DNA from: Candidatus Omnitrophota bacterium
Lineage (GTDB): Bacteria > Omnitrophota > Omnitrophia > Omnitrophales > Aquincolibacteriaceae
Length of the DNA: 64,000 nucleotides
Reading direction: 5' to 3'
Assembly: GCA_030698625.1 (NCBI GenBank)
Contig: JAUYMS010000003.1
Span: forward strand, 83,471-147,470
A program made the position numbers and the translations under genes. Shown here piece after piece: positions 906 to 52,743 of the stretch. Position 1 is the first letter of the stretch. Each line of letters starts with the position of its first letter. The notes beneath the pieces were generated by a model that did not search any database, was not told where the DNA came from, and saw nothing but the letters and a program-made list of their open reading frames with translations.

Positions 906-1025
906 ATGCGGAAAAAGAATTTCAAAAGGGGATTTTGCATCTGGCAAAAACTAACGGCCGCCTTTGTATCGGTCTGCATGATCCTCTTGAGTGTTGTCGA
1001 ATACGTGCCGGCCGCTTATGCCTCG
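906..1025 (+). other. Sec-type signal peptide or signal anchor of the giant protein (MRKKNFKRGFCIWQKLTAAFVSVCMILLSVVEYVPAAYA|ST).
   Basis: Basic n-region, about 20-residue hydrophobic core, A-Y-A motif before a polar stretch. Confidence 0.55.
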
Positions 1026-13000: not shown

Positions 13001-16000
13001 CGATATTATCCCGCCCGCACAAAAACGACGGCATCGGTCTGAGCTCAGAAAGGGGAAGCCGATTGAGGATTATCTGAAGGAGCTCGAAAACGAGAAGGCC
13101 GTATTCGGACCGGACAACGCAGGGGAATTTTCAGAGAGCCACCGTTATGTGGACGGTATTCTTAAAAAACTGATCCTTACAGCGGGTTTTGATCCCGCAG
13201 AGTACTCTCTATACCTGGTCGATGACCCGGAACCCAAAGCCTGGATTCAGGGGCGCTATCCCGCCGTATTTATCTCGCTCGGCCTGCTGCGCTTTTTCGG
13301 GCGCCATCGGCTTTCACAAGACGCCCTGGCCCACCTCCTGGCGCATGAAGTGCTGCATCTCCGCCAGCATAAAGAGGACGAGCACTATAGCGGGCCGTCA
13401 AGCTGGTCTGAATACTACGCGGAGTACTATGCGAATGAGTACGACGCCGATGTCCGGGCACTCAGGCTTATGGCTGAGGCAGGATTTTCCATTCAGGACG
13501 CCGAATCGACTTTCGAAAAATTACGCGAGGGAATGGGCAAGAATGATTACTCGCCTCTCGGCTCCTACCCGCAGATGCGCACGCGCAGCGACCGCATCAA
13601 ACAGATCCGTGATTACGGGCGCTGGCCCGACAGCGCGCGCGCCGCGCCGCAGGCCATGCCTCAGGAGGTTCTTCGCGAGGCCATGCGTTTCTCGCTCAGG
13701 CGGCAGAAATGGCATCGCGCCAACCGCATTAATCAGGTGAAGGAGCTTTCCGAATTGATCGAGACGGCTGATGCGCTCAATGACCTTACGTTTATCCTAT
13801 GGTCGGGTCTCGGACGGCTCAAGAAGCGCCGGGTCCTGAAGTCGGCAAAGGTGCCGCATGCCGTCGAGTCCGCGCTCGTGACCCGGCTTGCTGCATTACC
13901 GATCTGGCCCGAATATCTCTCGGCCGACACGCGTGACCTCGCCGCGAAACTACTCGGTAAATTCCTGGCGGCGACTGTCTACGGAAAGTTTATGGAAAGA
14001 ACGGTGCTGATCGACCATGAATTGTTGAATGAAAAGGCATTGCTTGACGAGCTTTCGGAGATTTTTCACTCGGCAAAGAACGCGAAAGATGTGCTCGACC
14101 TGATCTCGGCGGCGATCTTTGTGACGATGCCGCAGCGCATCGCGCTCGGGCGTGAGACGGCCGGCGACGCTCAAAAATCCTATGCCGCATACCAAAACCG
14201 GTGGCATGCCGAACCGCGGCGGGGCGGTGACACGGTGGGATGGGTCTATACGTGGGAGCAGTTTCTGGGACGGGCGCTGCTCGAAGAAGTACCGTACGTG
14301 CCGATAGCCGGCCGGCAGGTCCGGTGGGGCCCTTTTATCCGCGTCGTCGGCTGGATTCAAGGGGCCGTCCGGTTCGTTCTCGGCCGGTTCGTAAGTATCG
14401 ATTGGATTCAGGTGCGTGACCCGCTTGCCGGGTGGACGGCGGCAGACCTCGGGCGCGTGTACGAAGCGGGCGCGGGGCGTACCTGGGGCGGGTATCATAT
14501 CGGTCCGATGCGTCATTCCAATGTGGTCGGCATCGACCACTGGTTGTTTCAGGCGGCGATCAATCATCCCGAACTCGTAAAGGCCATGGACACCGATACC
14601 TTCCGCCGTTTTGTCAAAGACGCCACGAAAATCGCGGTGGCCAAGGGGCCCGGCCACAGTGATGATCCCGAGACACAGGAAGCCAAGATGCGCAACATGA
14701 TTTATGAAGCGGCGTCTTTGGATGCCGCCAAGCGTGAGGTGATCCAAAATCTTCTGGGTAATGATTATGATGTCTTCGGCTTCTTCAGAACGGGGATCGA
14801 ATCGTTTCCCGATACCTGGATCTTCGGTGAAAACGCACCGGGTACCGGATATGCATACGCAGAAAAGAGAATGGATGATCTCATCCGGCAGCTGCACGCG
14901 CGGCGCGGGTCGATCAGCGGTATGGTGCTCCACCACTCGGAAGTGCTTCATGCAAGCGATCGTCTTGCGGAGAGCGCGAAACTGACGCAGACCGAACACC
15001 TGCGCCTCATGGCCCACCTTGCGAAGACCGAATGGTATTCGGCTGACATGATGTGGCACAGCCTGCTCGGCTGGGAATCGGGTCGCGTTCAGTGGATACC
15101 CTCTTTTCTCGGACAGGCCGACGACGAGCTGAACGCCTTCATCGACCTCGATTTGAGGGCGCGGCTCGGTGACGGCGTCTGGGAAAGCCTGCCGGTGACG
15201 GGACGGTTCATTTTTTATGCTTACCTGAACGATATCTACCAGTTGCCCGCCGACTGGGAAGCTTGGGACCGGGAAGTACAGTCGTGGAGCACGGAACAGA
15301 TCCGGTTGCTGCACAGGGTGGTTGCACAGAGTACGAACCGGCCCGTCTTCGACACGGATGCGAGGCTTGACCGCGAGGCGATCGACCGCCGGCCGCCGCT
15401 TCCTTACCGCCGTTCGCGCGAAGAGCTCTTGTTGCGCTTGAGTGTGCTGGGCCTTTTGAAGGAACAGGGCGTTTCTCTAAAGAAGTATTTGCCGCCGGTG
15501 GAACTCGGAAGGTCGGCGCCGAGCGGGGCCTTTGGTTTTGCGGATCAGCTGGCTGATTTGCCGCGCGGAAGGAAGGAGGACAATCCGCGCGTCAGGCGGG
15601 CGATGGATCACCTCTTTCACATGTTCCGGCTTGAAAAGGGCCGCTCGCCGTGGATTAACCGAACCGATATCGAAAAGAACGGTGAGCAGGGGATGACCGC
15701 CATCCTGGGTTATGTGTTCGCGGAAACCGGCGAGACTCCCGCAGACATGGCCGATCGTATCGCCCACTGGCTGCCGGCCACGGCTTATCGTAACTGGGTG
15801 CTCTATCTGATTTTCATGCACCACTACCTTGGCCGAACACTCGGCGTTAAGATAGACCGGAAACGGCTGGGGGATACGAGCTATATGGCGGAGGTGTGGG
15901 CAAGCGTGAGTGATAACCAGCGTGAATCCGCACGTCATTTTATTCGGGAAAAGATCGCACCACTCATGGTGCAGGATGCGCGATTGGAAGGCTTGAATCT

Positions 16001-19000
16001 CGCCAGGGTTTTTGACCATTTTATTCATGAGAAACTCCATGAGGTTGACGAAGCCGCTTACGAAAAGGCATTGCCGGGTTTTCAGGATGTAAGGTATTTC
16101 GTTCCGGGCACCGTGTTGACTCAGCTCGACCTCATGATGGGGGGCGTATTCTCCCCGGGAATTTCAGAGCAAATCGCCGATGCGGCAAGCGATCCTCAAG
16201 ATATTCTCGAACAGATCAGTACGGCCTATCCGCGTGCCTCGGCTGAGCGCGACCGTTTGTTGGTCGAACTTGCCGACCACGCGCGTGCCGATAGCGGCGT
16301 CCTCAAAGACATCATGCCGCTGCTTGACGGCCCGTGGTATAAGCAGGAAATCGGAGTGCGGGCACTTAGAAGCATTCGTGCTTCGCAATCCACAACGTCT
16401 GTTGACGATTCCCTGAAGCTCATCGAAAACTGGCTGCCGAGCGCGACGCCGATACGTGACGGGCTCCTTCACGAGGTCATTCAGGAAGAGGTCGGCACGC
16501 TTCCGGAACTGAATGCGGTGGAAGAAAAGCTCTTCGCACTGCAGCCGAACGAACAGAGGCGCCTGCGCGGAAACCAGGCCGTGGCGCTTATGGGCCTCGA
16601 GTTTTTTCAGGCCATATTCGGGTACGGCACTCCGATGGCCTCCAAGCTGGACCTCTTGGATTGGTTTTTCTTTGAGGGCGGCAAGCCGGACATCCTGCGG
16701 CGCTATGAATTTCATTTCCGTATTTCCTTTGAGGGTTTTATCGAGGAATCCGGCGATCTCGCCAAAAACGAACCTGAGGTTGCGCGCGAGGTCAGAAAAC
16801 GGCTTCTCGCGTTTGTGTTGGACGGCGACCAGGGTATTCTTTCAGACGACGATGCGACTGACGAACTTTTTAATCGGCTGCTGGCCCGCTGGCTTCCGGA
16901 AAACACCGAATTCGACATCGTCATCCGCACGGTTCTCGAGAGTTTGATCGGGCTCTCCGACCGTTTGCGAAAACGTGAAATCCTCATGCACCTGTTGGCA
17001 GGCCCCGACGATCTCAGTGCACTCGGAAACGACCCGGAACTCCGGCAAGCCAAAGTGGCGAAGCTCATTCTCGAAGCCAACGGCTTAGTCGGTATCAAAG
17101 TCGGACAGGTGCTCGCGAACTCGGCACTTGTGACCGATATGCCGGTGCCGATGAGGACGGAATTGGCGAACCTGCAGGACCGCGCCGACCCGATGGACCG
17201 CGCCGTGAGCTTGCGGATTCTCGACCAGATCCACAACGGCAAACTGCACGACCATTATCCGCGAATCGGCCGCGTGCTCGGGAGTGCATCCACCAGCGTC
17301 GTTTATGACGCATGGCACCGCAGCGGGCGGCACGTGGCGCTTAAGCTGCTGCGGCCGACCGCGCGAAATCGTACTGTCGGTGATCTCGCGATGCTGAAAC
17401 TCATACCGGCCGATGTCATCGAGCGGCTGAATGCGAAGAATATCGCAATTCCGGAGTGGCTTGAAAACTACCTCGGTCTGCTTGTCGGGCGCGTCGAACG
17501 TCTCGTGATGCCCGAACTCTTTTATACGGTGGAGGCACAAAGCATGGACCGGTTCAGGGTGCGTCAGCTGGCGCGGGGTTCGGCGCTCCGTATTCCCGAA
17601 GTCGTGGAAAATCCGGGTGACGATCTGATTGCGATGGAACTCATCGAAGATGCCGTGCCGGTTTCAGATGAAGCGGGCATCAATACCCGAGGGCGGCAGA
17701 TGGGTGATGTGCGGCGCGACATTGCGCAGGAGATGATCGTCGAAGTTCACGAAGGGGAATATCACGGTGATCCGCATCCCCGAAATTTCCTGGTCGACAA
17801 GGACGGCCGACTCTGGATGATTGATCTCGGTGCTGTCTACGAGGTGAGTCCGAAGAGTGCCGCATTTCTCATCAGCCTCGTCGCCGCCTTGCACATGGGC
17901 GCAGATATACGGCCCATTCTCGCGGACCTGCTTACGGCGAATGCGGATCCGGCCGCTCTTGAGTCGGCGATTTCAGAAGCGGCGCGAGTCGAAACAATTC
18001 CGGAAAAGATTGCCCAGATTTTCCTCACGCTTGACCAGCAGGCGCTATTGCCCGAAGACCTGGCGCTGACACAGCGGCTTTTCCTGCAGGGCGGTCACAT
18101 CTTCGAAGGCCTGAGTCTCTGGGACCTCATGCAGATCGGCGAACAGCTCAAAGACGGGCCTCAACGCTCCGAGCTCGGATCCGAAACCCCCGTCGTGCGG
18201 GAAGGTCTGCGGCCGGATTTGACACCGTTCATCGGTATCGGCGTACACCGTAAGGACCATCTGTCTTATGGGAACTCGGCCGCAATTGAAGGCGCGGAAA
18301 AGTTGACGGACTTTCTTCGGGACCGCGATTTGCTGCATGAGATACAGCTGACCGTCGAGACTGAGGCCCAGTCTCAGATCGGCCGCGAGATTGCGTCCAA
18401 ACTAGACCGGGTTCCCGACGCAACAATGCGTTTGATTGTGGACGGAGCGTTCATGCAAAAGTGCTGCTCCGAGGCCGTGCTGGGTATCTTTGACCACTTG
18501 GAGGCTAAACCCGGGCGTTTCGCGGAGCTCCATCTGCCCCTGGATCTTATCCTTTACTGGGACGACCGCCAGATGCGGGACTCTCCGCCCGAAGAAAAGG
18601 AGGAATATATTGCGATGCAGGTTCTCCCGAACCTTGAGCGCCGTGGTTTTGGATATAAGGCTTACGGTGTCAATCACCAGATCCTGGCCGAGCGCGACCC
18701 GCCCAAGGGAGGCGAAACCCGGCTGGTCGTCAAACTCTGGCATTCCGCCAAGGAAATGGAGAACTGGGCCGACAGCCTCGCGGCAAAACCCCTGAGGTCG
18801 GAGCTGAGGGCGCTCGAGCCGGTGATGCCGGTGAAGAAGGTGCTTGTCATGACGGGCGAATATTCTTATATGCCGTTTGACAAAGAGCGTGAATGGGAAC
18901 GGTACGTGGTCGATTACCTGCGCAAGGCCGGTGTCGAAGCAGAGTTTGTGTACGCCAACGGGGCGGGTGGAACCTTGCGGCGATTCGAAGAGGAGTTCGA

Positions 19001-22000
19001 TGAAATCGGTCTCGTGATCGCAACCGATGACGTCCTGCGCGGCGTCCGCGAACGGGAACGTCTGATCGGGCGGAATCCGGTGCCTTATATCTTAATGAAG
19101 ACGACCTATCTGCGAATGGACGAACCGGAGCTCGAAGAGCTCGGCAATGCGGTTTATGTGCATAGTGGGCTTGGGACATTGGACGAACTCAAGGAAATCA
19201 TTCCCGAGATTGTCGGCAACGCCGAAGGGGCGGTCTATGAGCCGTTTTGGACAGGAGAAGGCATTGAGGCGAAACCGGCGCGGGAAGGGGTCGAACATCC
19301 GGCCGTCGAGTTGCTTGAGGAATTACGGCAAGACCTCACAAATCCCACATTCCTGAAAAAGATTTACCGCGACACGACCGACTACGATGCCGAACCCCTG
19401 ACAGCGCGCTTCACGTTGATTCCCGGATACAGTCTACCGGCTTTTCCGATGACGCCCGCGAGTTTTCGTGACGACGTCCACCGCCGCATTATCAAGGAGG
19501 TTTATTCCATCCTGCCGCATGTCATCGAATTTCCCGTGGAGGCTACGGGCCGCGCGCCCGTGGTCATCGGAGCGGACTCCGATGAAGGCATCGCCCGGTG
19601 GGCGAAGACAATGAGGGTCGGCAGCCGTTTCGATCAGTGGATCAGCGATAAAATGCCTCTGGTCCATATCGAGCAAAGCCTCAACCGGATCATGACCGAA
19701 ATCGACGGAAAAGAACGTGCGAACAAGGCATTGAGGCGTAGTGTTTACAGGAAACTCGGATGGCGTGTCCACGATCTTGAAATCAAGAGCGAAGCGGCAG
19801 GCGATGAGGCGGGGCAGACGATATTTAATGTTATGGGAACGTGGCTCCTTGCGAACCCGGAGGCCGTCACTCGCGCCTGGGTGGCCGAAGACGAAGACGG
19901 CGCAGCGGCCGGTATGCTGGTACTCAAAAGAACGATTGCGAACGAAACCTTCGGTGAGCACCGGGAGATGGTGAATTCAGCGATCGCAATCGCATCGGAT
20001 GCGGCAACTCGCGGCAAGGGAATTGCGCCGCGTATGATTCGCGAGAGTTTCGAAGCCATGCGACAGAGGGGCATACGCTATTACTTCGCGGATATTGATT
20101 ACCGCAATAAACCGTCTTTCCGCACTTTTATAAAAACAGCGGCCGCGGCCGGGGCTACGGTGACTCACTTCCCCGAAATGACGACTAGCCGGGAAGAGGA
20201 ACGGCCGTTTCTGATCGACCTTTTTTCCGACCAACCCGCGCCGCGCGATCTTCCGGAAGCGCTGCCCTCCGATCCCGATGAGGCCTGGGCTTATGTTCTG
20301 GCGCAGGGATTGATGCAGGAGCCGAGCGATGAGTACTCGTGGACGCCACCGGCCGCTGACGGGGACCGGGCGGTCCGCGAGTATCGAGTCAAAGATGTGA
20401 CCGAAGAGATTGAGGCTGACGAAGATGCGGGGACCTGGATTGATTTTCAGGAACTTTATGACGACAAAGTGCATGCAAAACTTAGGGATATCACGGAATA
20501 CCCGGACCCGGCCGGCCATGAAGCAATGATGAGAGGATTTGAAGTCCAACCCGACGGCAGTTTTGATACCGTCAAACTTGAGGATGGGGCCTACTCTGCG
20601 ATTGTCCGCATTGCGGACCGCGCCGCCGTTCAGGATACCCAACAAGCCTTCCGCAAGTTTGTTGATGCGATTGCTAAGGTGTTTCCGGCGGATGTGCGTG
20701 ATCAAGTGCGCGTGTGGGAAACCGGCGAGGACAACCCCCATATCGGAACGGCGGTCTTTCAGGTGCCCGAAGTACTCTTGGGCGGAAAACAGCCCCGCTT
20801 GCAACCGCGGCATATCGAACCTCTGCAGGAACTTGTCCGTGAAATGACTCAGGACGAAGAAACAATTCCGCTCACTTTCTTGGGCTACGGCATCGGAGCC
20901 GACGGCGGCTTTGTGCGGCTCTACAGCGACCCGGCCGGCCGGTTCATGAAACTGCGCAACGCCCTTCTCCTCAAAGGCCACAAGGTGAGCCAGATGTACG
21001 CTTCGGGGCGGGGAACGAACATTATTGCTATGACCGGAGGCCGCATTTTGCATCTGCCCTATTCCGCCGATGCCGCGATTGCGGCCCGGCAGAAGGACCG
21101 CGTTCTGGAAATTGTGCGCGACAGGGCGCAGGCCTTTCAATCGCAGTGGGAACAGAACCTCGCAGAGCCTCAAATTCTTGATGTCGACGGCCTTACCTGG
21201 GTCTTGGAAGACAAGTGGCTGACCGAACGCAACGAACAAGGCGTCGAAGACGTCTTCTTTCCTTTTGGCGGCCGTTCGGAGCTGCGGAGTTTGAGCGAGG
21301 ATCTGTTAGCTGAGTTGGCTGCGGAGTACGCGGTATCACGGTTGACGAGCGGCAGGAATTCGGCCGAAGAGCAGGAGCTGATGCTGAAAACCATGCGGTC
21401 CGATGTCCACAAGGCAATCCTCTGGCGGTACAAGGGCCTTGAGTTTGAACTTCGCGAGCGTATCGAAGAGGTTGTCTTCGAAGCCGTTCAGGCTGCGGTG
21501 AGAACCTATGACGGAGTACGGCTGAGCTATCTCGATTATTTTTACGCGACGGCACAGGAAGCTATTTTGCATTTTTTCGCAAAATCCGTGCCGGCGGCAA
21601 AGCGGCCCTATCTGCTTTCGGAGCCGCTTGAGGCATATCTGAGGTTTCTGAGTCTCGAGAACCGCCGGCCGGAGCTCGACGAGTTTCTCGGTCTGACCGT
21701 AAATGATATGAAGAACGAAGATTACCTCGTCCTGCAGAGAGAAACGGATGCCGCTAACTACGAAGATTCGATTTCGGTGCCGGTTCGTGCGGCGGCGCCG
21801 GAGAATCAACTGCCGAAGCCCGTTCAGATCGCGAACGCGGGAATGGTGCGGCTTGCGAAAGCATTCGGAATTCAGGCGGCCGACATCACGGCAGCCATGA
21901 TCCACAGCGTGCCTAACACCGAATGGGCCGTGCTCTCCTTATTTTTCGGCATCGATGGCGAACTCATACAGGATCCCGAACAGATCGCCCGAAGGCTCAC

Positions 22001-25000
22001 CGAACTGGGTTACCGCGATGCGAATAATGAAGCGTTACGGGGCGAGAAAGTTTCCGACTACGTTGTCCGGGGTTTGAACCGCTTGCAAAATCGCGAAACC
22101 GGGCGCACGCGCCTTGCCGATGCGTTGGGCAAAAAGCCGACCGAAATTACGCCCGATCTCCTGCAGGCCTTGACCTCGCGTGAAGAGGCGCTCATCCGGT
22201 ATAAGTTTGGTATCGGTAAATCGCGTCTCATGACTCATCTTGAGATCGCCGAGAAGTTGACGAAGGAGGGCTTCAGCTTCAACGACGGTGTTCACGTGAC
22301 AAAAACACTCTACCGCATTTTACAAAAGCTGAAGACAGCTCAGACAGGGTGGCAACTGCTCGCCGCCGATCTCGGGAAGCCGGAAGAAGAAGCGAGACGT
22401 GATTTCGAGAAAAATGCGGCAAAAATGACCCAATTGGAAACATTGGCCGTCACCCATTATTACGGTCTCGGGGTCAACCGGATCAAAGACAAAACACGCC
22501 TGGCCAAGCATCTGAGTGATCTGACTCATGAGACCATCCGAAGGAATCGCCTTTACCGTCTGCTTGCGCGAGGCCTTGCCGTGCTGCGCGGCGAAAAGAA
22601 ACGCGTCCGCGTCAAATCCGCCTACCAACCGCCGATCATTTCGGAGATCCCGGAAGAAGTGGGCGTGACTGGCGACGAACTCCTTCAAGTCATGCGCGCC
22701 GCCGCAGGCGATCAATCTCTGGCGGAGGCATTGGTGCCCGTCCGGGATGCATGGTATGCGTTGCATCCGCTCGGGCGGGAAATCCTGATCATCAACTTCG
22801 GCCTCGGAGTTACGGCCGCAAAATCGCTTCCTGAGATCTCCAAACGCCTGAAAGAAAGTCCTTACTGGGTTGAGAAAAGTGATCCGGCAAAGACAACACT
22901 CACACGCCATCGCCGGTTAGCGCTTGCAGATCTAAAACAACGCGTGAGCGGCCTTAACCGCCTTGCCGAAGACACGGGTGTTTCCGAAGAGTATCTTCCG
23001 GGAATCATTTCGCAGGGACTCGCGCTTGAGCAGAAACGTGTTCTCAAGATGACTTTCGGACTCGATACCGAACGAATCGTGCCGGATAAATTAATCGTTG
23101 ATATCTTTCGTGATGCATGGAGCGAGGAAATCAATGCCATGCGGGTGCGGACAGTGCGCAGGGACGCACTGCAGAGGATCCGCGAATTTGCCGTCAACGC
23201 GGGTTATGCCGACGAGTCGGTTCTGACGAAACGGAAAAAAGACATGTCGAAACGGACGCCGCGGCCGCCCAAATGGACGCGCGAACGAGTCGACCAACTC
23301 ATCGCCGAGTCTGCGGACGAAAAGTTGCGCGCTACGATCCTGCATCGCCAAGGCCTGGGCGGGCTTGTCAATGCGGCGTCGGGTTTCTACGGGTCGTGGC
23401 AAAAGGCTCTGGAGGCGCATCACCGCGATATTACGAAAATCAACATACGAAAAACACCGCAGCGTTCGGAACTGCGGGCAGACAGTCCGGAGTTATCGGA
23501 TTCCCGAGATGCGGAATACAAAAAGAGACTGACGGACATTCTCGAACAGCGCGCTTTGATCATGGAGTTAAGAGAGCTTGAGCCCGCGAGCGATGAAATG
23601 GTAGCGGTCATCCTGGAGCGGTTGGGAGAATACGCGGCTTCCGCGAAAGCGAGCCTGGTTGATGTCGAGGATTTTAAGTTCGTCCTGCGCCTTGTGACGA
23701 ATCCCGCTTGGAGGACGGGTAAATTTAGTGAAAAGATGAAGGCGCTTACTCACCTTTGGGGATATGTGGTGTTCACAGCTGTACGGGAACATCGCATGAA
23801 TCCGCAACTCCGAAGCTCGGTAGACCACCTGATCACAGACATGCTTGGTGCGGAGTTTGAGAATAGGGCCCCTCTCCGCAGGATTCTAATTAACACCGAG
23901 GTTGGAAGCCCGTATCACGAAAAACCCCTGCACGGTGAGGAGCAAATGCTGGGCTCCGACTTTGTGTATTTGATCAAGAGTTTGGCTAAGAATCTGAATT
24001 TATCCGGCCGTCTGGCTGAGAGGAACGACCGCCTTGTCGGGCCCATCCTGCGGGCTTTCGAGGGCCGGTATGATTTTACGCTGACCGAGGCGGAGCGGGG
24101 CAAAATTCTGCAGTTGATGGAAGGCAATGACCTCCTGGCCATTTTTGTCTCGGCGATGGACAACGGGCTCACCCGGCCGCCTTCCAGAGAAATGACGCTT
24201 GAAGACATCCGCAAGATCCGCGGGAAATTCCGCGAGGTTGTGGCGGATTCGATAGGGTCGTATCCGGTCTCCGCGAGGGACCGGATCCTCGTTCGCATCC
24301 TGCAGAAGCAGCCCGAGCTTGGCCGTGAGTTGATGGCTGAGGCTCAGGCGGCTGTGAGTTACAGCCGTAAGCCCATCGACTTTGAGGCAGCCGGGGCAAG
24401 TACTGTGAAGAGGCGAAAAGGTGTGAATGTTGCCGATACCGAAGGTTTTGGTGACTTTGCAGTAAAGCACCCCGACCTTCATGCGGTTTTGACGTCCCGT
24501 GAGAGTCTGCTCACGCTCATGCAGACGGCTGCGCTTGTCCGCGACTTCTTTCCGTATACACTCACGGCCCCCGACAAACTGCAGACCCCGGTTCAGTTTG
24601 CCATTGAATACGGAATGTATCTGCCGTTGGGGCATGGCTATTATCTGACACCGATTTCCGGCTCGTTCAAACGTCACCTGCTCTTTACGATGGATGACAA
24701 GAACCGGCCGGTCATGACGGTGCCGATCAAGATTCCCGGAAAGATCCCGGGCCGCCGGCCCGCTCTAAACGGTGATCTCGACCGCTACCGCGATGCCCGT
24801 GAAGTCTTTGGCGACGATATGGAGATTGCCGGAGCGATGGGAACCGTGGAGCCGGCGGGACTCGAGTCCGTTATGCTCTATGGCGAAGAGCGCGAAGTCA
24901 CAGAGAAGGATCATCTGCGTGTTCTGGTCTTGGAAGGGCCCGAAGCCGGGTGGCGCGTCGAATATCTGCGCCATAAAGACCTGCAGCGGATCTCAGACCA

Positions 25001-28000
25001 TTATCCCAAATACCATGGTGATGCCAGCCTCGTTGCCGACGATATTGCCAGAAGTATTCTTCGCGGCGTGGCCCAGTGGCATGCTCTGAACTATTTAGGA
25101 AAAGGCCCGGGAGAGGGATCCGGCACGGACCTTCACACCGGCAATTGGGAACTCCTCACGCCGCCGTTAAACGGAGACCCCGAGCAGGGTATCTCAGTCC
25201 GCAATATCATCGATCTTGCTTCCCTGCATCAATATGTAGAGGACCGGGCGGCGTTTGATGGGCAGCGCATGTGGGATCTCAAAACGGTCATTGATGCCAG
25301 AGATGTCCTGACGGGCCCCGGAGTCACCTTCAGTCTTTTGGCGCTGCACCTCAAGGAGAACGAACACGATTTTCTCGAAGACCCTCACGACCTCTTCGAA
25401 AAGTACACCGCGATCTATTCGGAGGAGTATGAAGCGGTCAAGCAGATAGCCAAGCGGCCGCCGCCGATGAGTTACAGGGAAATCTATACGACAATCCTCG
25501 GAGAGACGCATGAAGCACCCCTGATCATTACGGGGCTTACGGGCGCGGGAAAAACGATCTTGGCAGAAAACTATGAGAAGTATCTGCGGGAAGGGGAGGT
25601 GGAGGTGCCGGCCCACCTCGTGCATAGTGATGGTTTCTTACGGTACTCGGTAATGGCCCTGCTCATTCGCTTGCTGATCACGCTCGGCTGGATCAAAGTT
25701 GATGCGCTTACGAAGGAAGGCTTCATTCAGCGGCATTACTTCGATTTGGAGAAACGCGACCGATTCGTCGATGAAGTCAAAGCCGGAAAGTACGAAGGCA
25801 AGCAGCTCGTAATCGAAGGCATCTTCTCAGACATCCTTTTTGCGCAGGCCTTAAATGCAAAGACGCTTCTTATAGAAGCGAACAGCGCATCGGTCTATGA
25901 GGAGCGGTACGTCGACCGGTCCATGAAAGACAAAAAACGCCTCAAGCTGCCGGCCCAATTCCTGGCGCGTACGCTGATTTCAAATCGCTTAAATCAACAG
26001 CTCCTTGATTCAAGGGAGAATCATGACCTTGTCTTGAACCTTGATGACATCTTTAAGCCGAAGCTGACCGTCAACCGGCCTCCTAAAAAAGCAGAATTAC
26101 GCCGCTCGGGACTTCTTAAAGTCATAGTCGACGCTCTGACTGCCCCGGCGGGAATTCGCGAGCGTCTTACCGCCGACGGGGTGAAGTTCGGCAGCGTGCC
26201 GGAACCCTACGTATCGACATTCGACCTTGAAGGCCTGCCCTGGGTTTTTACGCAATACCGGAATGAGGACAAGGATTCTCCGTTGCTATCGCTTGATGAA
26301 CTCAAGGAACAGGCTTTGACATTGACCGGCACGCTGGAGGTGAAGTTCGACGGCGGTGCGAGAAACGCCGGGGTCTTTCTCGGCTATGTCCAAGAAGTCC
26401 CGCATCCAGTTGTTATCAAATACTTCCAGGCAGGCGTCAGCGATATGGATGCTTATGATCGGGCACTTGAACTTTATATGGCGCAAATAGTCGCGTTCAG
26501 CGGGGTCGGGCCTGAATTTTACGGGGTGCTCGTCGAGGACGGGGAGATTGTCGGGTACGCCATGCAGGCGGCCCCGGGTGCGTTCGCGACCCAGACAAGC
26601 GACCTGCTTTACCTCATGCGCTATCTGTATCAATCGGGTGACGCCGACAACAAGGCCGTGCAGCAGAACGTGATGCGAATCGAAGAGACGATGGCCCGCT
26701 ACGCCATGGTTCCCGTAGACGGGCATTTGAATGTTCTCCTTTCCCGGACCGGGCACATATCTTTGATTGATGCGGGCAATGTCCGGCCGGCTTCCGAACT
26801 TGCGGAATTTCGCATGCCCTCGTGGATGAGTTCCGAAGAAAAAGTCAAGCAGCTGTTCCAACTTATGCAGGCCTACCTGCAAAAACGACGGCCGCTAATA
26901 ACCCGTCGCGGCGCTATTCATACGTTGCTTGATCATACCCAAGCGGAGCACGCAGCACCTCTTGTATCGGTAACAACACGGGAGATGATGAAAGATGGTT
27001 TGCACGAAAGCCTGGTTAAGTACGTAAGGCAGGGAGGGCATCTGGTATTGACGACTCCAGCCTTCAAAGAAGAGGCCTTCCTGAGCGCGATCGACGGCAT
27101 CCACCGAAATTTTGCGGAGACCGGCGAAATCGAATTGCTGGGCCGCATCCACTTCATCGCAAGCGACAATAATCTTAAAGACATTTTTGTCTACGAATCC
27201 GATGCGGGCGGGTACCGGTTGTTGCCGGACGATCCGATGGAACCGGATCCCCTGCTCAAACTCGTTCGCTATCTGAACACGGCAGGCCGCAAGGTGCTGC
27301 CCTTGATGTCCTATGACTATGAGTCTGCCAGCGTACCCCGTCGTGCCTATTTCGATACTGCCCATCGCGTGTTTTCGCAAACCCCACATGCCGGCAAATA
27401 CGTTGCGATATGGGATATCGAAGAAATCACCGAGCGGCTTGCCGAACGCGCCCCCGAAGAACTCGAAAAGGGCAGGAAGGAACTACCGGCTCAGCAGGAC
27501 TTTATGGAATGGACATTCGAAAGCACCCCGTTCGAGGTGCCTGCCGGAAATCAGGTGAAGGTGATCGTCGGGGAAAAAGGACGGGGCGCACCGGGTTTCG
27601 TTTGGGCCGGTGTCAACGATTGGGAAAAGACCTATCTGATTCCGTTGGTTCAAAACCCGGCGACCGGCAGACACGAAGCCGTGCTCCCGGCCGGCACGAC
27701 CGCATTCACGTTCTATTGGCGCGATTCCCCGAAGGCCGCCGGCGAGCGATGGGAAGGCCGCGATTTTCATGTGCGCTCTGCTGAGCGCTCGGAACTACGG
27801 GCAGCCGCGGTCAATATCACGGAAACCGTATTGCCGAATGCGGGGCTCAAAGGAATGGCGTCACAGGATGCAAAGGTGCTGATCGCCGAACTGGACGGCG
27901 ATTTCCTACTGGAAAGTAAGACCTGGCCCGAAAGGAATGCGCGCACGTTTACCGCCGCCGAACGGAAGATCTTCGAAACGGGTGAGGGGCTGACGCCGTT

Positions 28001-31000
28001 TTCGGAATTCGACCTCACGCACGACGACGTTGCTTCGGTTACGCACAGCATCTATGACCGCACGAGCGGTATTATCGGCATACGGGCGGCCGTCGAGGAC
28101 AAAGCGGGAACGGTCCGCTATATCCGGTTTTCGGGCGCAGGCACGAACGAAATGGAGAAATTGAAAACTCTCATGCCACCCATTTCTGAGATGACCGCAG
28201 AGGGGACGGTCCTGCGCGTTTCGGCCGGTAATCAGGGTGACCTGGCCGGGAATTTTACCGTGCACTCACGCAAAGAACGGGGCTGGGAGTTTTTCGGGGC
28301 CAATGACGAGCCTTGGCGGGGAGCGAGATATAAGGCTTTTGTCCAATTGGAAAATGGGAAAAGGATGTTGGGCGAGGTCGAGCTTGTCGGCGAAGCTAAG
28401 GACAACCGCATTAAACAGGTCTTTATCACGCCTGTCGGCGGACGTGAACGAGTCGAGCTCGATGCGATGCAAACGCGGTCGGTCATTGTTGCCTATACGC
28501 TGGGTTGGGGCGAAACGCCGGCGGACGAGTTACTGAGGAAAAATTACGCCATGAGTTCCGATATCCGGCACCTGCTGGCCTTTCCCTTCTTCCGAGGCGG
28601 TCCGCAATTTTACAATCAGACGGTTTTGACCCGCGAGCGCTATAAAGCCGCGATGAACTTCCGGCCGTTGGATTTTGATATTGTCGACATGACCGGTAAC
28701 GCCATTCCCGTCGCAGAGCTTCTCGGCCAACTTGATAAATACGGTTATGTTGCTAAGGATACCGCTGACGAAGTCGTGAAACCGGGCGATTATTTTATTG
28801 CGGACGAAAACAACATTCGTCTTATTTTTCATCCTGCGGTTTATCCCGTCAACATTCTTGTGACGAGTCAGGACGGCGAAAAGGCGGCTTTCGTCAGCAT
28901 CCAGGGTGTTTCCGGAAATCTTGGCGCGAACTATTGGAATGTCTTTGAGTGGATTCAGGAACAGCTGCCCTGGGCCTTTGCCGCCTTTGCCCTCGACAAC
29001 GGCAAGGACCCGTCATGGCAAAGCTACAATGAGGACGGAACCGAAGCGGAGCTGCTTGTTACAGGCCGCGACCTCGTCAATGCGACCGTGCTTGTCACAA
29101 AACGTGACGGTTTTCAACGGTCAGAGTTAAGGCTCCCGGCACGGACCGCTGAGGAAATGATGACGCGCCGGGAATTTATCCCGCGGGCGGCGTTGGCGGT
29201 TGCTGCCGGTCTCGTTGTTCTTTATGAATCGCCCAATATTGTTCTTGCCGCCGACGAAGAGAAGGGAGAAGTGACACTCTTTCTCCTGAGTCACGGCACG
29301 GTTGAGGACTTCGAGACAGTAAAACCGCATGTGGAAGCGGTCATCAAGCGGCTGCTCGATGCGGGTAAGACCGTGCATTATTTTGTTGAAGCCGCCGATC
29401 TCGAAGCGGAATTATCACTGACATCCCTCATTTACGCGGCGCTTGCGCCCGATCAGTCCGCCGACTTGCGCGAGGTCTTTGGCAACCTCTATACGGAGCC
29501 GCTCCCCGAGGCCTTTCTCGAAACCTCTTTTGAGCAAGATCAGCTATTTGTGCCGCTCCTTCAGGGGGTCGAGCGAGGACTTCAATATATGAAGGATCAC
29601 AACGAGATTCCTGCCGACCGTATTGCCGATTACGAGCTGGTCCTCAAGCTTCTGCCTGTCTTGCGGAAGATCAAGGAGAAGTTCCGGGGAATCGTGCGCG
29701 GCACGGCATCGCCGGACTCCGACGACGTCACTCGCGAAGTCGCGATCGAGAGGCTTACGAAACTGTTTGATGAATTTTATGATGCGACCGACCATTCTTA
29801 TGAGCCGGATGGGTTAGCGAAGGCTCCGTTCGCGCATCGATTGCACTATGCCCTTAACCGGGATAAAGACGGAAAGCCCTGGGGATTCTGGGGCGCGCAG
29901 GAGATGTACCTTAGAGAAGGCACGTTTGCCCCGGAACTGGGAACACGACTGCTTGTTCACAGGGAACGCCTGCTTACGCCCGGCCAGCTTGATGCGTATA
30001 CGACAGCGTCGGTGCAATACTCGAAACTATTTGAAGCGCTCGGATTTCCGGGAAATCCCAAATCAGTTATCGAGATCGAAGGAAAATTTCCGGAAGCGGT
30101 TTTCTATGCGACGCAGGGTACCGCGGAGGAGAGATTGGCCCTCGTGCGCAAAGCCTACTACGAGGCCGGCGCCCGATTTGAGAGTGCCGTCATGGGTGGC
30201 CGCGACAGAGCGCTATCGCAAGAGGCGGTCCGTTTAACACCGGAGGACAAAGACGCATCGGTGATTACCCGCGGTTTGGCTCACGTGGCGGCGGGAAGGC
30301 TTCTGGCGGATAATGCCGCGACGGATGTCAGGGACATGAAGCAGATTCAGGGAAGGGCGCAGCCGGCAGTTGACGCGCCCAATACCGAAGCGGAGCTCAG
30401 AGAAATGCGCGGCGGCAATCCGGGCGACGCCATAAAATTAAAGGTTGGGCAGCATATGGTGGTCGGTTTGATCTCCGATCTCGTTCGCGAAGTCCACAAG
30501 GATCATTTGAAGGCGTATCGAGAGCGCTACGAGAACCTCGCGGCCGGAATCCCCGATACCCTTCAAGGTGAGGACCGGGAAAAGGAAATTGAAAAACAGA
30601 TGAATCAGGCCCCTTACTTCCGCGCCATGGATCCTGCACCGCTTCCGAAACGGCTTGAGAGGTTTTTTGTCGAAGACAGACGCAGTATCTGGAACGCAAT
30701 GGCGGACCACCCGGAACAAGTTGAGGAATTCCTGCTTCAGGCCTTTAGGATTCATGCGGCATACCAGCGGGTCGTTGCTGCAACGCTCCGGAAGAAAAAA
30801 GAGACGGAGCCGGAGGAGGATCCTGTGGAAATGGCGGGGAGAATCTATGCGACTTATCTGGCGATGCTGAAGCTGCGGTCTGCCTCGATCCCCACGCCGC
30901 TTGAAGCCGAAGAGCTGCCGTTCAAGTTGATCACAAAGGCCGTTGCCGACGGAGTGTATGAAGGGGATGTGAAGACTTTCCTCGATACCTTCGAAGCAGA

Positions 31001-34000
31001 AGCCGAAAAAGTCATGGATTTCAAACCTTCGCTCCTGCGCCGCGAACGCTATCGCTCCGAGCTGCGGGATGATGAGCCTGTAAAGGAGATTCCTCTTTAT
31101 ATGGCTTATGCGCGGCATTTAAACGCGGCGGACACCTTTGATTTCGCAAAGCCGTTTTTTGATGAGGCAATTCAGAAAACATCTCGCAAAGACGGCCGCC
31201 CGAACGGCATTATGATTATCGAGCATGTGGATTCCAATCTTGCTGCTATGTTCATGAACGCGATGCACCGAGTCGTTGATCCGGTGCAGTTTCCGGACTC
31301 GGTCGTGGGCGCTTGGTTCAGACAACAACTTACTATTCCCAAACAATGGACACCTTATGAAAAGATGGAATCGTTTCTCGTGCAGTACCGGCAAGATCAG
31401 CCGTTCAGGACTGAAGTGGACAACCAGTATCAGGCCTTTCTCAAACATATTGGCGTCGAGAGAATCTATGGCATCTATGACCTAAAGCAAAGGATCGGGC
31501 CGGCCTCTGTTTTACAGCATGCGGAGCTCGACTATTTTATCGAAAAGGGGATAGGTCAGGCCGCGTTGGAGCCCGCCCGCTTTGAAACGGCCGCGACGGC
31601 GTATCTTTTCGGGGAATTGGATAAGGAGATAAGGCAAGCGCTTACGCAAAGGAGATATGACGATGCGGCCAACTTGCATTTAAAGTCGATTGATTTGCTT
31701 GAGGACTCGGGCAAAGTCCGCGACAGGATAATGAATCAATTCGTAGGTGAGCTCATCCGGGAAGATCCTGAGCGTGCCATCTATCACTTTCGCGGTTTTA
31801 ATCATGAGAGAAATCACGATCTCCTTACGGGTGACGGGCAAAAGGCCGCAGGTGTCTTGGTCGGCAGCAGGCTGGGCCAGAGGCCTGTCTTTTCGACAAC
31901 CACCTTTCAAGCCATGGACGGCGCAGAAAAAAACCTTCTCCTCATACATTTTATGAATGAGGTCCTGGATCATTTACTTCATGAAGAGAAACTCAGCTCG
32001 CATCGCAGCATCCAGGAATTCCTGGCTTTTCACCTGAGTCTGACACAGGGGCTTGAGCGGGAATTTAAAAGCCTGGAACAACCTGAAGACTACGATGCTT
32101 GGTTTAGGGAAATCTTTGATGCCGCAAACGAAACAGTACAAAGGAAGAGCCTGTCCCTGGGTCTCGCGCTGCTTGAAGTTTTGGAAGAAAGAAATATCCT
32201 GTCTCGTTCCGAGCTCAGGACCGAAGGCGGCGATAAAGAAAAGCCTCGCGGGCAAATTACGCGAAGGACGTTTTTGGATTGGATGGTGAAAGCCGCCAAT
32301 GCGGCCGCGGCGGCATCGGGGGTTTCGCCCGGGGCATTGCTCGAGGCCGCCGTCTCCATCCCCGCCGAGAAACCAGACTTGTCGCTGGCGGCGTTGGCCC
32401 GGCGATTTGCCCATAATCCCGATTCCCTGAAGGAACTCGAACAGGGTGTTGCTTGGCTTCAGGCATTCACTATCCTATACGGAACTGACAAGAAAGAGGA
32501 AGACTATGAGCTGGGCTTGATAAACCTGAAGCTCGCCGTACTGGACGGCGTGCGCACACGCAAAGAAAGTGAAGGCGTGACCGCGCTTTCCGAAGAGGAA
32601 GCCGCTTCACGGCTTGAGACGGCCCTGAATTCGCTGGAATCCATTGCCCAGTCCGAGGGCCTGAAAAAGGCCCCGCATCTCTTGGAGCGTCTGCGGAGCC
32701 TGATGGCCGAACCGTTCAGCTTCAAAGCTGCGCTGTCTGCACGAACGGCTCTGATACGGCACGCCTGGGGCACCGTACTTGGACCCCGCAGCGAGCTGTC
32801 GAGGGTCGCCAAAGACGTTGCCGAATGGTATGGCCGCGATCTCCGGGCCGCGCAAGCCGTAATGGCGGAGATCGCCGAACAGCTCACGCCGGAAGGATTC
32901 CGAAAAATACGGCAGCGGGAATTGATCTTCGAAAGGAATATGGACAACTACTTTGATCGTTCACTCCTCCCTGAGATTGCGCGCGGCGAGGCCGAGATCG
33001 ATTGGAGCAACCTTTTGGAAGACGACTACCGCGCTCGCATGTCGCGGTTTAAGGATCTGGCCGGTCAGTTGCCGGCAGCGGTGCGCAAGCAGGTGTTTGC
33101 CAATCCTAAAGTGCGGGAGGCTGAACGCAGTTACCGGCAATGGCAGCGCGAAAGCTGGAAACGAAAGGAGGAGCGGGAAACCTCCGCCGATCCCGAATCG
33201 CTCAAGATGATCATCGTCGGCGGCAGGTTCGACGACGAAGGCGGCAGGCCGTCATCATTAGTCAATCAGATTCATGCCGCACTGCCCGCGGGCACGAAGC
33301 GCGTCAACGGCGGCCGCTTTGACGCAATTCCGGGCCTCGCAAAGACCCTCGCCGATTATGACGTGATCATCTGGTTTCCCGATATTCCCAATGACAAGGC
33401 GAAATACCGGAATCTGAAAGCGCGGTATCCCGACAAATTGCTGGTGACCTCGAAGCGCAACCACGAAGGCAGTTATAGCGACCTCGAAGTCGTCGATCAC
33501 GCGCTCAAACTCAAAAGCAATCTCGTCATCGAATTTTCGGATACGATTCCGTTTAATATGAGGCTGCTGGATCCCTTGGGAAATGTCTACGAAGATACTC
33601 AGGACGCGTCATCGCTCGCCAAGTCGATGACAAGGCGCCTCAAGGTGATCGCGAAGGTGCGTCGGCAGGGGACAAAACGCGTCGCGGTCGCCTCACCGGT
33701 CAAGGTACCGGATGAGCCCGAGTTTTTCGATATTATCCGCGATCAAGCCGCGCGATTTCACGAGATCATGAGTGAACGTCGGCCGGAGACGGAAGAAAAC
33801 GAGGAGTTTTGCTTCCGTTGCGAAAGGGGATTCCCGAGTATGCGCGAGGGCGATTTCGCGTTCGTCTCGAAGCGGGGTGCCGCAAACACGGAGCGGCATT
33901 TTACGCGCAAAGATATGGTTCCCGTGGATTTGGCGAGTTTCCGCGAGACGGGCGAAATTAATTTCTACGGCCCCAACAAACCGGCGGTGGATACGCCGGT

Positions 34001-51882: not shown

Positions 51883-52701
51883 ATGAAGTCCCTCCTCCGC
51901 ATCTCCCTGATTTTTGTTCTGGGCGTCGTTATTCTTCTTGGGGGTCTGTATTACTGGCGCAACCAGCTGATCGAAAAGCTGTTCGTAAAATTTGTTGCCG
52001 GCAAGCTTCAATGCGAAGTGACGCTAACCGAAGCGCAACTCGACCTCTTCGCGGCCAAGGCCACTTTTAAGAACATTAAAATTTCCAACCCCGAAATCTT
52101 CAGCCGCGGCACACTGACTGCCATTCGTGAGCTTTACCTGGATTGGGATTTTCCGGCCTTGTTGGAAGGAAGACTGCATTTCTTCGCGGTAAAACTGGAA
52201 GTCGGGACCCTGCGCATTTTGCGCAACAAGCAGGCGCTGATTAATATATTGGAACTGAACGTTTTTAAGGAAGCGGACGGGGCAGAAGGCGAAGAAGCGC
52301 AGCCGAAACGCGATATCAACCTGCAGGTGGACGAGTTTATCCTTATTCTAAATCACGCGACTTATACCGATTTGTCGGGCATCGTACCGCTGCAGAGAAG
52401 CTTCAATTTACACATGAAGGAAATCGCATTTAGTAACCTGACAGACCTCAAGATTCTTGTGAAGATTGTCGGTTGGGAGACGCTCAAGGCAATGGGTATT
52501 GAGGACATGACCAACCTCAACCCCAACCTCCGGGCGCAGCTTGAAAAGATTCGTCCAAGCGCGTCGGAAGGCTTCGTGACTAAGTTTGTGGAGAAGGTGA
52601 AACAGATTGGTGAACCGGGAGCCGTTATCACTGACGAAGCGACTGCTGTTCAAGAGGTGTTGGAGAAGAGTAAGCGGGCAGAGGGAATCGAACCCTCATA
52701 A
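51883..52701 (+). CDS. Hypothetical protein with an N-terminal transmembrane anchor (possibly AsmA-like).
   Basis: MKSLLRISLIFVLGVVILLGGLYYW signal anchor. No catalytic motif recognised. The 3' end overlaps the tRNA-Gly on the opposite strand. Confidence 0.45.
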   Translation: MKSLLRISLIFVLGVVILLGGLYYWRNQLIEKLFVKFVAGKLQCEVTLTEAQLDLFAAKATFKNIKISNPEIFSRGTLTAIRELYLDWDFPALLEGRLHFFAVKLEVGTLRILRNKQALINILELNVFKEADGAEGEEAQPKRDINLQVDEFILILNHATYTDLSGIVPLQRSFNLHMKEIAFSNLTDLKILVKIVGWETLKAMGIEDMTNLNPNLRAQLEKIRPSASEGFVTKFVEKVKQIGEPGAVITDEATAVQEVLEKSKRAEGIEPS

Positions 52702-52743
52702 CGAGCTTGGAAGGCTCGGACTTTACCATTAAGCTATGCCCGC
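52673..52743 (-). tRNA. tRNA-Gly, anticodon UCC.
   Basis: The reverse complement folds as a cloverleaf: acceptor GCGGGCA/TGCCCGC, D-arm GCTT-AATGGTA-AAGT, anticodon arm CGAGC-CTTCCAA-GCTCG (anticodon TCC), T-arm GAGGG-TTCGATT-CCCTC. No encoded CCA. Confidence 0.85.

Follow-up and report, generated by a model that had tools for sequence, protein, structure and literature searches.

A twin-arginine-type signal peptide behind a recurring RSELR pentapeptide: a candidate polyprotein encoded by a giant Omnitrophota gene

Giant proteins of Omnitrophota are the closest described counterparts of the gene considered here. Among them, 916 long proteins have been classed as single signal-peptide/transmembrane (SP/TM) chains, with a chunked DeepTMHMM pipeline that turns signal-peptide calls on any chunk but the first to 'outside', as artefacts (bioRxiv 10.64898/2026.06.07.730766). 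Post-translational cleavage of such proteins has been raised as a possibility (West-Roberts et al., 2023; Seymour et al., 2023, PMC10066038; bioRxiv 10.64898/2026.06.07.730766), and autoproteolysis via C39 or S8 domains has been suggested, the cleavage points being unknown (West-Roberts et al., 2023, bioRxiv 10.1101/2023.11.21.568195). Here we analyzed a 64,000-nucleotide stretch of a Candidatus Omnitrophota genome (contig JAUYMS010000003.1, positions 83,471 to 147,470; hereafter the window), which contains a giant open reading frame (ORF) of 12,250 codons without a stop (903/906 to 37655, forward strand), punctuated by 16 copies of the pentapeptide RSELR. The thirteenth copy is followed by a peptide with the features of a twin-arginine signal, and we propose, with a probability of about 0.5, that cleavage at RSELR exposes it as the export signal of the segment behind it (module 13) in a bacterial polyprotein.

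906 to 37655 (+): giant ORF, 12,249 aa from ATG 906 (12,250 from TTG 903), 17 modules with 16 RSELR pentapeptides between them

The ORF has much in common with the described Omnitrophota giants: it comes from the same phylum, exceeds 10,000 aa, begins with a signal peptide, holds few hydrophobic segments and consists mostly of unannotated sequence with scattered methyltransferase, GNAT and kinase domains, and a small rotamase gene lies nearby. With a length of at least 10,000 aa, an Omnitrophota genome, SP/TM segments and methyltransferase/GNAT/kinase-type Pfam content, it belongs to the multi-enzyme class of these ORFs, in agreement with the published description of a class rich in methyltransferase, GNAT and HATPase domains (bioRxiv 10.64898/2026.06.07.730766). 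What sets it apart from the giants in the literature is the strict RSELR punctuation and the signal of twin-arginine translocation (Tat) type behind the motif, both of which appear to be undescribed for giant Omnitrophota proteins in the searchable literature. When 8 million full texts were searched for 'RSELR' and its variants as whole words, only the context of the PL7 alginate-lyase motif was returned. That family is recognized by R(S/T/N)E(L/V)R together with QIH and YFKAGxYxQ within one domain of ~250 aa; YFKAG is absent from the ORF and the two QIH matches lie away from the RSELR sites, so this identity was ruled out.

In the polyproteins of Flaviviridae, internal Sec-type signals act co-translationally in the uncut chain, carry single products across a membrane and are trimmed by the host signal peptidase. 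The window ORF shares with them the single ORF, the unrelated products, the short conserved (here putative) protease sites at the boundaries and the internal signal peptide; their signals are of the eukaryotic endoplasmic reticulum/Sec type, whereas the one described here is of the twin-arginine type and lies in a bacterial chromosomal gene with ATP-synthase, nuo and nusA-infB flanks and no viral context. MARTX toxins are exported by type I secretion and cut after Leu in loosely defined linkers. Like the window ORF, they are very large bacterial products with unrelated enzymatic modules; theirs are released by site-specific proteolysis and reach separate locations, as is proposed here, but the window ORF carries an N-terminal Sec signal and a strict pentapeptide, and neither a Peptidase_C80 (CPD) domain nor RTX-type repeats were found in any module with Pfam/NCBIfam. 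The precursors of ribosomally synthesized and post-translationally modified peptides (RiPPs) and the fungal Kex2-processed repeat proteins contain repeated short recognition sequences flanking variable cassettes that a dedicated protease releases. A likeness to these is seen in the 54-aa module 1 of the window and in the 15-35-aa spacers of P0002, a related giant ORF introduced below; the window ORF differs in scale, its cassettes being entire enzymes (200-1,900 aa), in its recognition sequence, which is unrelated, and in having no RiPP maturation enzymes nearby.

A functional internal twin-arginine signal is known from dual Sec-Tat proteins (the actinobacterial Rieske protein Sco2149 and others), where the Tat-dependent helix is the last transmembrane domain (TMD) after Sec-inserted helices and combines low hydrophobicity with a positive C-terminal side (PMC5449189, PMC3471235). 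The window signal departs from that architecture, with no nearby upstream TMDs (the nearest clear hydrophobic segments upstream are at aa 547-588), high hydrophobicity and an acidic C-flank; closer to it is P0003, a stand-alone relative of module 13, in which a hydrophobic segment, a basic linker, a twin-arginine (RR) peptide and a globular domain follow one another. Since such internal Tat signals function (PMC5449189), the premise of the first-pass annotation of this DNA, that a signal peptide works only at an N-terminus, is too absolute.

The RSELR pentapeptide occurs exactly 16 times in 12,250 aa, against 0.035 copies expected from composition, and only 79 of 2000 shuffled versions of the ORF gave even one. 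Other variants of the form R-x-E-[LIVM]-[RK] do not occur in the ORF (2.6 expected). The codons differ among the 16 sites (CGG/CGC/CGT/CGA/AGG for Arg, AGT/TCx for Ser, GAA/GAG for Glu and TTG/TTA/CTT/CTC/CTG/CTA for Leu), and these differing synonymous combinations imply selection on the peptide, not on DNA or RNA. A nucleotide-level element such as a recombination site or an RNA motif was ruled out on the same codon differences together with an Rfam scan of the ORF, which found no catalytic RNA, intron or other match. The flanks are unconserved, except that Q/E tends to precede the motif and small, polar or acidic residues tend to follow. The motif scan located the following sites.

2343 to 2357 (+): RSELR site 1
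2505 to 2519 (+): RSELR site 2
3750 to 3764 (+): RSELR site 3
4701 to 4715 (+): RSELR site 4
9417 to 9431 (+): RSELR site 5
10392 to 10406 (+): RSELR site 6
12276 to 12290 (+): RSELR site 7
13035 to 13049 (+): RSELR site 8
18795 to 18809 (+): RSELR site 9
21273 to 21287 (+): RSELR site 10
23463 to 23477 (+): RSELR site 11
27786 to 27800 (+): RSELR site 12
29118 to 29132 (+): RSELR site 13, putative cleavage site before the signal (aa 9406-9410; CGG TCA GAG TTA AGG)
31053 to 31067 (+): RSELR site 14, C-terminal boundary of module 13, where RAEIR of P0002 and the final residues of P0003 align
32205 to 32219 (+): RSELR site 15
37050 to 37064 (+): RSELR site 16

The 17 segments thus delimited measure 54-1,920 aa each and show no significant mutual similarity. 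As in a polyprotein, a single ORF encodes unrelated units, with different enzyme domains from module to module and two of the 17 modules common to P0002, and a short motif recurs at the boundaries, in the window ORF and in P0002, with the homologous module and a stand-alone gene bounded at motif positions. Only three near-cognate variants of the pentapeptide exist in the ORF, RSILR at aa 8050 (nt 25050-25064), RSELG at aa 5755 (nt 18165-18179) and RSELS at aa 10629 (nt 32787-32801), and they may be decayed or non-functional sites.

Within nt 29118-29255, RSELR 13 of 16 is followed by eight residues (LPARTAEE) and then by MMTRREFIPRAALAVAAGLVVLYESPNIVLAA; from the end of LPARTAEE onward the sequence reads MMTRREFIPRAALAVAAGLVVLYESPNIVLAADEEKGE, and the peptide starts at about residue 9,420 of 12,250. 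The first-pass annotation had singled out this order of RSELR number 13, eight residues, T-R-R-E-F-I and a hydrophobic h-region, which is exact in the translation, and its estimates of some 9,400 residues for the location and about 600 aa for the module agree with the position found and with the next RSELR, 645 aa away. The elements of the signal and of the module behind it are:

29133 to 29162 (+): n-region LPARTAEEMM, unconserved, with two in-frame ATGs (29157, 29160) preceded by GAGGAA
29163 to 29180 (+): twin-arginine motif T-R-R-E-F-I, both arginines invariant in the four family members
29187 to 29225 (+): h-region AALAVAAGLVVLY, 13 uncharged residues, mean Kyte-Doolittle value 2.41, four K/R in the N-flank, C-flank net charge -4
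29226 to 29249 (+): c-region ESPNIVLA, ending in a conserved signal-peptidase-I site of the form V-x-A, with the cut predicted to fall between nt 29249 and 29250
29250 to 31052 (+): predicted mature module 13, ~601 aa, conserved in P0001, P0002 and P0003, with the motifs LFLLSHG, KTVHYFVE and TRGxxH

The motif T-R-R-E-F-I-P conforms to the Tat consensus S/T-R-R-x-F-L-K at the boundary of n- and h-region, and behind it come an uncharged h-region within the usual range (~12-20 residues) and a c-region in which positions -3 and -1 are small or aliphatic. The peptidase site lies in I-V-L-A-A-D and reads V-L-A/A-D-E-E (the slash marking the predicted cut), with an invariant small residue, A9449, in the alignment with the three relatives. 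A peptidase site had been noted before as an AxA; the site itself stands, although its conserved form is V-L-A/A, one residue upstream of the cut then proposed. The curated NCBI hidden Markov model (HMM) of Tat signals, TIGR01409, scores the isolated peptide at 17.5 bits in its post-RSELR form and at 18.1 bits in a Met-initiated form (cutoff 16.7 bits), and in the same format it gives no match for the Sec signal of the ORF, the hairpin of module 2 or the N-terminus of module 15. The Pfam model TAT_signal (PF10518) was reported for one of the four family members (E = 0.011), and an HMM that we built from the four signal peptides matches only the orthologous site in each giant. A Tat signal is expected at the N-terminus, which is not where this one is encoded; it would take that place only after RSELR cleavage or internal initiation. 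On these comparisons, the module 13 peptide is supported as an export signal of the twin-arginine type, while strict Tat-dependence of the export is unproven. Of the earlier proposal that cleavage at RSELR creates a new N-terminus and that the module is exported, sequence comparison thus supports a boundary with its own predicted export signal, but not Tat-dependence specifically.

The two in-frame ATGs directly before TRREF, with GAGG 2-5 nt upstream, bring up internal translation initiation at 29157 or 29160 (MMTRREF...), by which a separate protein would arise with no proteolysis. MTRREFI... would be a textbook Tat N-terminus (18.1 bits with TIGR01409) and, over all frames of the window, is the only Tat-like N-terminus that begins with Met. 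The Shine-Dalgarno (SD) element, however, is not significant, since SD-like motifs precede 20 of the 256 in-frame ATGs of the ORF and many genuine genes of the window have none, and P0002 has no ATG between its RSEVR and SRRDFLK. Such a product would moreover run to the stop of the ORF (2,831 aa) unless it were also cut at RSELR, and the 16 RSELR sites would stay unexplained; we consider this alternative very unlikely.

An exhaustive phmmer (HMMER) search of 1.84 billion protein cluster representatives with module 13 yielded exactly three relatives: P0001, a 337-aa fragment from another Ca. Omnitrophica metagenome-assembled genome; P0002, a 4,466-aa ORF on a 96-kb metagenomic contig (locus L002); and P0003, a 682-aa stand-alone gene (L003, 257-2305) on a 2.3-kb contig, preceded by non-coding, AT-rich DNA and by an in-frame stop. 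Word-indexed protein searches with module 13, with the four-sequence alignment and with a trimmed alignment returned no match and missed the known relatives too, and scans of genome contigs and metagenomes gave no match beyond the contig of P0002 itself. Identity among the four sequences is 25-34% over the module and 33-43% over the first ~140 residues. Both arginines, S33 and A39 (position -1 of the peptidase site) are invariant in all four, position -3 is V, V, V or L and the h-region is kept, and the n-region is wholly divergent in sequence and length. The peptides of the three relatives all pass TIGR01409, with 18.5, 20.1 and 18.6 bits.

The motif is found with the signal in the two relatives that form part of larger ORFs as well. 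RSELR site 13 aligns with RSEVR of P0002, which ends 14 residues before SRRDFLK, and with RNELR of P0001, which ends 10 residues before TRRDFI. P0002 contains 21 R-x-E-[LIVM]-[RK] sites against 1.04 expected, and another of its motifs is followed, 14 residues on, by a different segment of RRR plus hydrophobic residues. Every alignment of module 13 starts at the signal. The homologous block runs to the following motif, which is RSELR in the window and RAEIR in P0002, and P0003 terminates 6 residues past the column of that motif. The RSELR-bounded segment thus behaves as a single unit of evolution and function, found also as a gene of its own. The window giant and P0002 share only two modules, namely the N-terminal module 0 with its Sec signal and module 13. 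P0002 also contains motif-bounded short spacers in three near-identical copies, e.g. RSEIR-SETYASDTAEHSKTGRFGERQGSRMFAVQGSQEPA-RSEVR (aa 2696-2740, 3367-3391 and 4086-4130; L002 nt ~9782-9916, ~11795-11869 and ~13952-14086), which would be released as free peptides of 15-35 aa if the motifs were cut.

The existence of P0003 makes it plausible that the module began as an independent secreted protein, and the modules differ between the giant relatives, which suggests frequent fusion and shuffling. The signal could then be an evolutionary relic, a once-independent Tat-exported gene having been fused in, with its signal now functionless and the module attached or cytoplasmic. We find this quite unlikely: RR, the h-region and the -1 Ala have been kept at an overall identity of only 25-34% while the n-region diverged completely, and all four peptides pass TIGR01409, whereas decay or deletion over such a divergence would be expected of a hydrophobic peptide that had lost its function.

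To place the signal in the context of the whole chain, we considered the signal-like and hydrophobic segments of the giant. The pattern [STQ]RRxF[LIVMA] has just two matches in 12,250 aa, both at most 20 residues past an RSELR, and under a TATFIND-like rule (RR plus at least 12 uncharged residues) three of the four matches in the ORF lie at most 14 aa past one. The stretches within 20 aa past an RSELR make up just 2.6% of the protein, and the binomial probability of the TATFIND-like clustering is P = 7e-5. Averaged over 19 residues, Kyte-Doolittle values of at least 1.7 are reached by the N-terminal signal peptide and by three segments that begin 8, 30 and 19 residues past an RSELR.

906 to 1022 (+): signal peptide of Sec type at the N-terminus of module 0, MRKKNFKRGFCIWQKLTAAFVSVCMILLSVVEYVPAAYA/S, with a Kyte-Doolittle peak of 2.14-2.49 and a net charge of +5 in its N-flank
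2541 to 2666 (+): Ala/Gly-rich hydrophobic stretch of 42 residues, probable TM hairpin, starting 8 residues past RSELR site 2 and flanked on either side by basic residues
32259 to 32342 (+): second, weaker Tat-like segment TRRTFLDWMVKAANAAAAASGVSPGALL, beginning 13 residues past RSELR site 15

According to the positive-inside rule, the charges of the flanks set the orientation of a segment in the membrane. The hydrophobic segments behind the motifs all have a basic N-flank and an acidic C-flank, that is, the N-in/C-out orientation of a signal peptide. P0002 has three segments of the same orientation in succession (aa 14-31, 2191-2210 and 2780-2792) and, as we read its hydrophobicity peaks, no clearly reverse-oriented TM segment between them; the window giant shows the same conflict behind the signal peptide at its N-terminus and between aa 9429 and 10464. 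Given that consecutive segments are all N-in/C-out, a single uncut membrane-threaded chain does not fit under this rule, and, judged from their sequences, the segments could all function if each headed its own polypeptide. The enzyme modules that use S-adenosylmethionine (SAM), ATP or acetyl-CoA are signal-less, which accords with a place in the cytoplasm.

These observations bear directly on the alternative that the segment acts in place with no prior RSELR cleavage, either as a co-translational signal recognition particle (SRP)/Sec start-transfer or signal-anchor sequence or as an internal Tat signal. In that case the giant would be one chain threaded through the membrane, modules 0 and 13 on the outer side, as published pipelines treat such proteins (single SP+TM chains), and RSELR would have another role or serve later processing. 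An out-in-out-in alternation is conceivable if aa 547-588 form a single span and aa 10464-10480 insert, although the N-in/C-out flanks of every post-motif segment contradict an uncut topology in the window giant and in P0002. Internal Tat signals are established experimentally for Sco2149 and related families (PMC5449189), and in P0003 a hydrophobic segment and a basic linker precede the RR peptide; in the window, however, the features of dual Sec-Tat proteins are absent, the nearest clear hydrophobic segment lying ~8,800 residues upstream, with no final TMD of low hydrophobicity and a C-flank of net charge -4. The h-region is hydrophobic enough for Sec (Kyte-Doolittle 2.41) and the V-x-A peptidase site could release the downstream part by itself, but the constant spacing of 8-15 residues from motif to RR in three polyprotein contexts is left unexplained. 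On balance we regard action in place as unlikely.

Structural prediction adds little about the module itself. AlphaFold2 models of module 13 (from 4 sequences) and module 0 (from 2 sequences) reached a pLDDT of 48 each, and the best Foldseek match of the module 13 model in the PDB, with E = 1.0, is meaningless. Neither module 13 nor module 0 has a Pfam, NCBIfam or PDB match for its fold or function (0 matches in a profile search of PDB sequences), and the alignments of modules 0 and 13 gave nothing against Pfam beyond the one TAT_signal match. A ChaN/TraB/Tiki-type resemblance of modules 0 and 13, suggested by their strand-x-H, strand-E-G and G-G-x-H patterns, was dropped: hhalign between the two profiles gave a probability of 0.1%, and we make no claim.

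A protease that could act at RSELR has a single, weak candidate within the ORF, an M48-like region at the start of module 8, a module with weak HtpX/Lit matches that also holds an ABC1/UbiB-type kinase domain. C39 and S8 peptidase domains were not detected in the modules of the ORF with Pfam/NCBIfam.

13140 to 13367 (+): start of module 8, region with a zinc-metalloprotease motif of M48/HtpX type (AHEVLH), PF01435 with 22.2 bits against a cutoff of 20.3, HExxH at aa 4148

A buried hydrophobic helix combined with a non-proteolytic RSELR (e.g. a docking or modification site) would accord with the weakness of this protease candidate and with a helix at module residues 12-22 in the AlphaFold2 model, of low confidence. 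The full n/h/c architecture, the invariant RR and the -3/-1 peptidase site are hard to attribute to such a helix, the signal-like segments cluster past the motifs (P = 7e-5) and the homology blocks and the stand-alone gene end at the motif, all of which makes this explanation highly improbable.

We therefore return to cleavage followed by export as the reading with which we began. RSELR would be the strict recognition site of a putative endoprotease and separate functionally unrelated modules. A cut at site 13, at a scissile bond that we infer from the motif, would leave LPARTAEEMMTRREFI... as a free N-terminus, and this would be a complete twin-arginine-type signal peptide with n-region, T-R-R-E-F-I, 13-residue h-region and V-L-A/A. 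The module of ~640 aa would then be exported across the cytoplasmic membrane, by the Tat route if the organism has one, Sec/SRP being conceivable as well, and trimming by signal peptidase I would give a mature protein whose first residues are ADEEKGE. Most of the remaining modules, which are signal-less enzymes of the SAM, ATP or acetyl-CoA type, would stay in the cytoplasm; module 0 carries its predicted Sec signal and module 2 its probable hydrophobic hairpin 8 residues past its RSELR.

Several observations weigh against this reading. TIGR01409 fires only on isolated peptides of 41-70 aa and not on the whole module of 645 aa. For a Tat signal, the hydrophobicity of the h-region is on the high side, and a basic Sec-avoidance residue is lacking from the c-region (there is one K in the C-flank), so that the moderate hydrophobicity and Sec avoidance that are typical of Tat signals, if not obligatory, are missing; with a Kyte-Doolittle value of 2.41 and no such residue, routing through Sec/SRP is possible. 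tatA and tatC were not found in the 64-kb window plus ~13 kb of extra flanks (~77 kb), and a further N-terminal Tat signal is found neither in the window nor in its upstream flank (L004), negatives that are uninformative as to a Tat pathway. The Tat-like segment of module 15 fails TIGR01409 and has aldolase-II and SAM-methyltransferase domains behind it; these domains disfavour export of that module, and we do not count the segment as a signal. P0002, which has the same class of motif, contains no HExxH and no Pfam domain at all, and since it has no M48-like region, a conserved protease would need to be sought in one of the two shared modules or outside the giants. Finally, the family comprises four sequences, so its conservation rests on few independent lineages, and P0003 has an extra N-terminal hydrophobic segment before its RR peptide, which may therefore be internal there. 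In P0003 that segment is followed by a very basic linker of 45 residues and then by the TRRQAI peptide; alternatively, its true start may be Met38.

In a broader form of the proposal, R-[SA]-E-[LIV]-R would serve the multi-enzyme giant ORFs of Omnitrophota in general as a separator code, and these ORFs would amount to protein-level operons whose products are sorted by their exposed N-terminal signals. We put this forward tentatively and at less than even odds. Cutting would probably be co-translational and yield a dozen or more products, destined for the cytoplasm, the membrane or the periplasm by way of a Sec signal, a TM hairpin or a Tat signal, and the shared modules 0 and 13, both with predicted export signals, would be conserved machinery. 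That RSELR acts on the ribosome in the manner of a viral 2A peptide is a radical variant to which we give hardly any credence.

As regards the rest of the giant, its Pfam/NCBIfam domains are scattered SAM methyltransferases, an ABC1/UbiB kinase, a GNAT, a class II aldolase (aldolase-II) and the weak M48-like region, with none otherwise. Base composition is uniform along the ORF, with a module GC of 0.53-0.58 except in module 14 (31068-32219), where GC is 0.495 and GC at third codon positions (GC3) is 0.555, GC thus lying below that of every other module (0.53-0.58); module 14 may be more recently acquired. Module 13 as a recent insertion was ruled out, its GC and GC3 being like those of the rest of the ORF. 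Module 10 (21288-23477) contains, at residues ~285-325, a helix-turn-helix resembling sigma-70 region 4 (TIGR02997, 32 bits, far under the family cutoff) and is otherwise without annotation. Module 1 (window 2358-2519, between RSELR sites 1 and 2) has no domain; this 54-aa mini-module would be released as a small peptide if both flanking sites were cut.

On one side of the giant gene lie ordinary chromosomal genes, namely those for nuo subunits, an F1Fo ATP synthase operon, an M28 peptidase and nusA-infB-truB-ribF-pnp-dut, and on the other a gene for a secreted SseB-like protein. The latter, of the SseB family (PF07179) and with its own N-terminal signal peptide, is found at 218-703 (+), directly upstream of the giant gene; P0002 has no SseB-family equivalent upstream in L002, and synteny upstream of the two giant genes is not conserved. 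By exact sequence, the proteins flanking the giant correspond to deposited proteins (MDP39193xx) of a Ca. Omnitrophota metagenome-assembled genome. A 91-aa parvulin-type rotamase is encoded ~1.2 kb upstream of the giant gene start, beyond the left edge of the window (L004, 9454-9729), and Rotamase_2 peptidyl-prolyl isomerases are conserved near Omnitrophota giant genes (West-Roberts et al., 2023, bioRxiv 10.1101/2023.11.21.568195). The sole Rfam match within the window is a tRNA gene at 52673-52743 (-), with 70 bits.

The finding bears on the question raised in the literature of whether the giants of Omnitrophota are single chains or are cut into pieces (West-Roberts et al., 2023). A strict boundary pentapeptide combined with an export signal suited to a free N-terminus offers concrete candidate cleavage points. 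It also points to a methodological blind spot, in that a pipeline that erases internal signal-peptide calls goes on to read the giants as single membrane-anchored chains; features like the signal behind RSELR would be erased systematically by the chunked DeepTMHMM procedure. The kind of mechanism, in which polyprotein products carry their own targeting signals, is known, and what would be new is its cellular bacterial context. If the proposal is true, gene-poor, ultra-small bacteria would be making ordinary cellular enzymes by a polyprotein strategy like that of viruses, and RSELR and its protease could become a useful orthogonal processing system. If the separator-code reading holds, it would mark the first bacterial polyprotein system that is cellular, neither viral nor a toxin, and that targets its products to different compartments.

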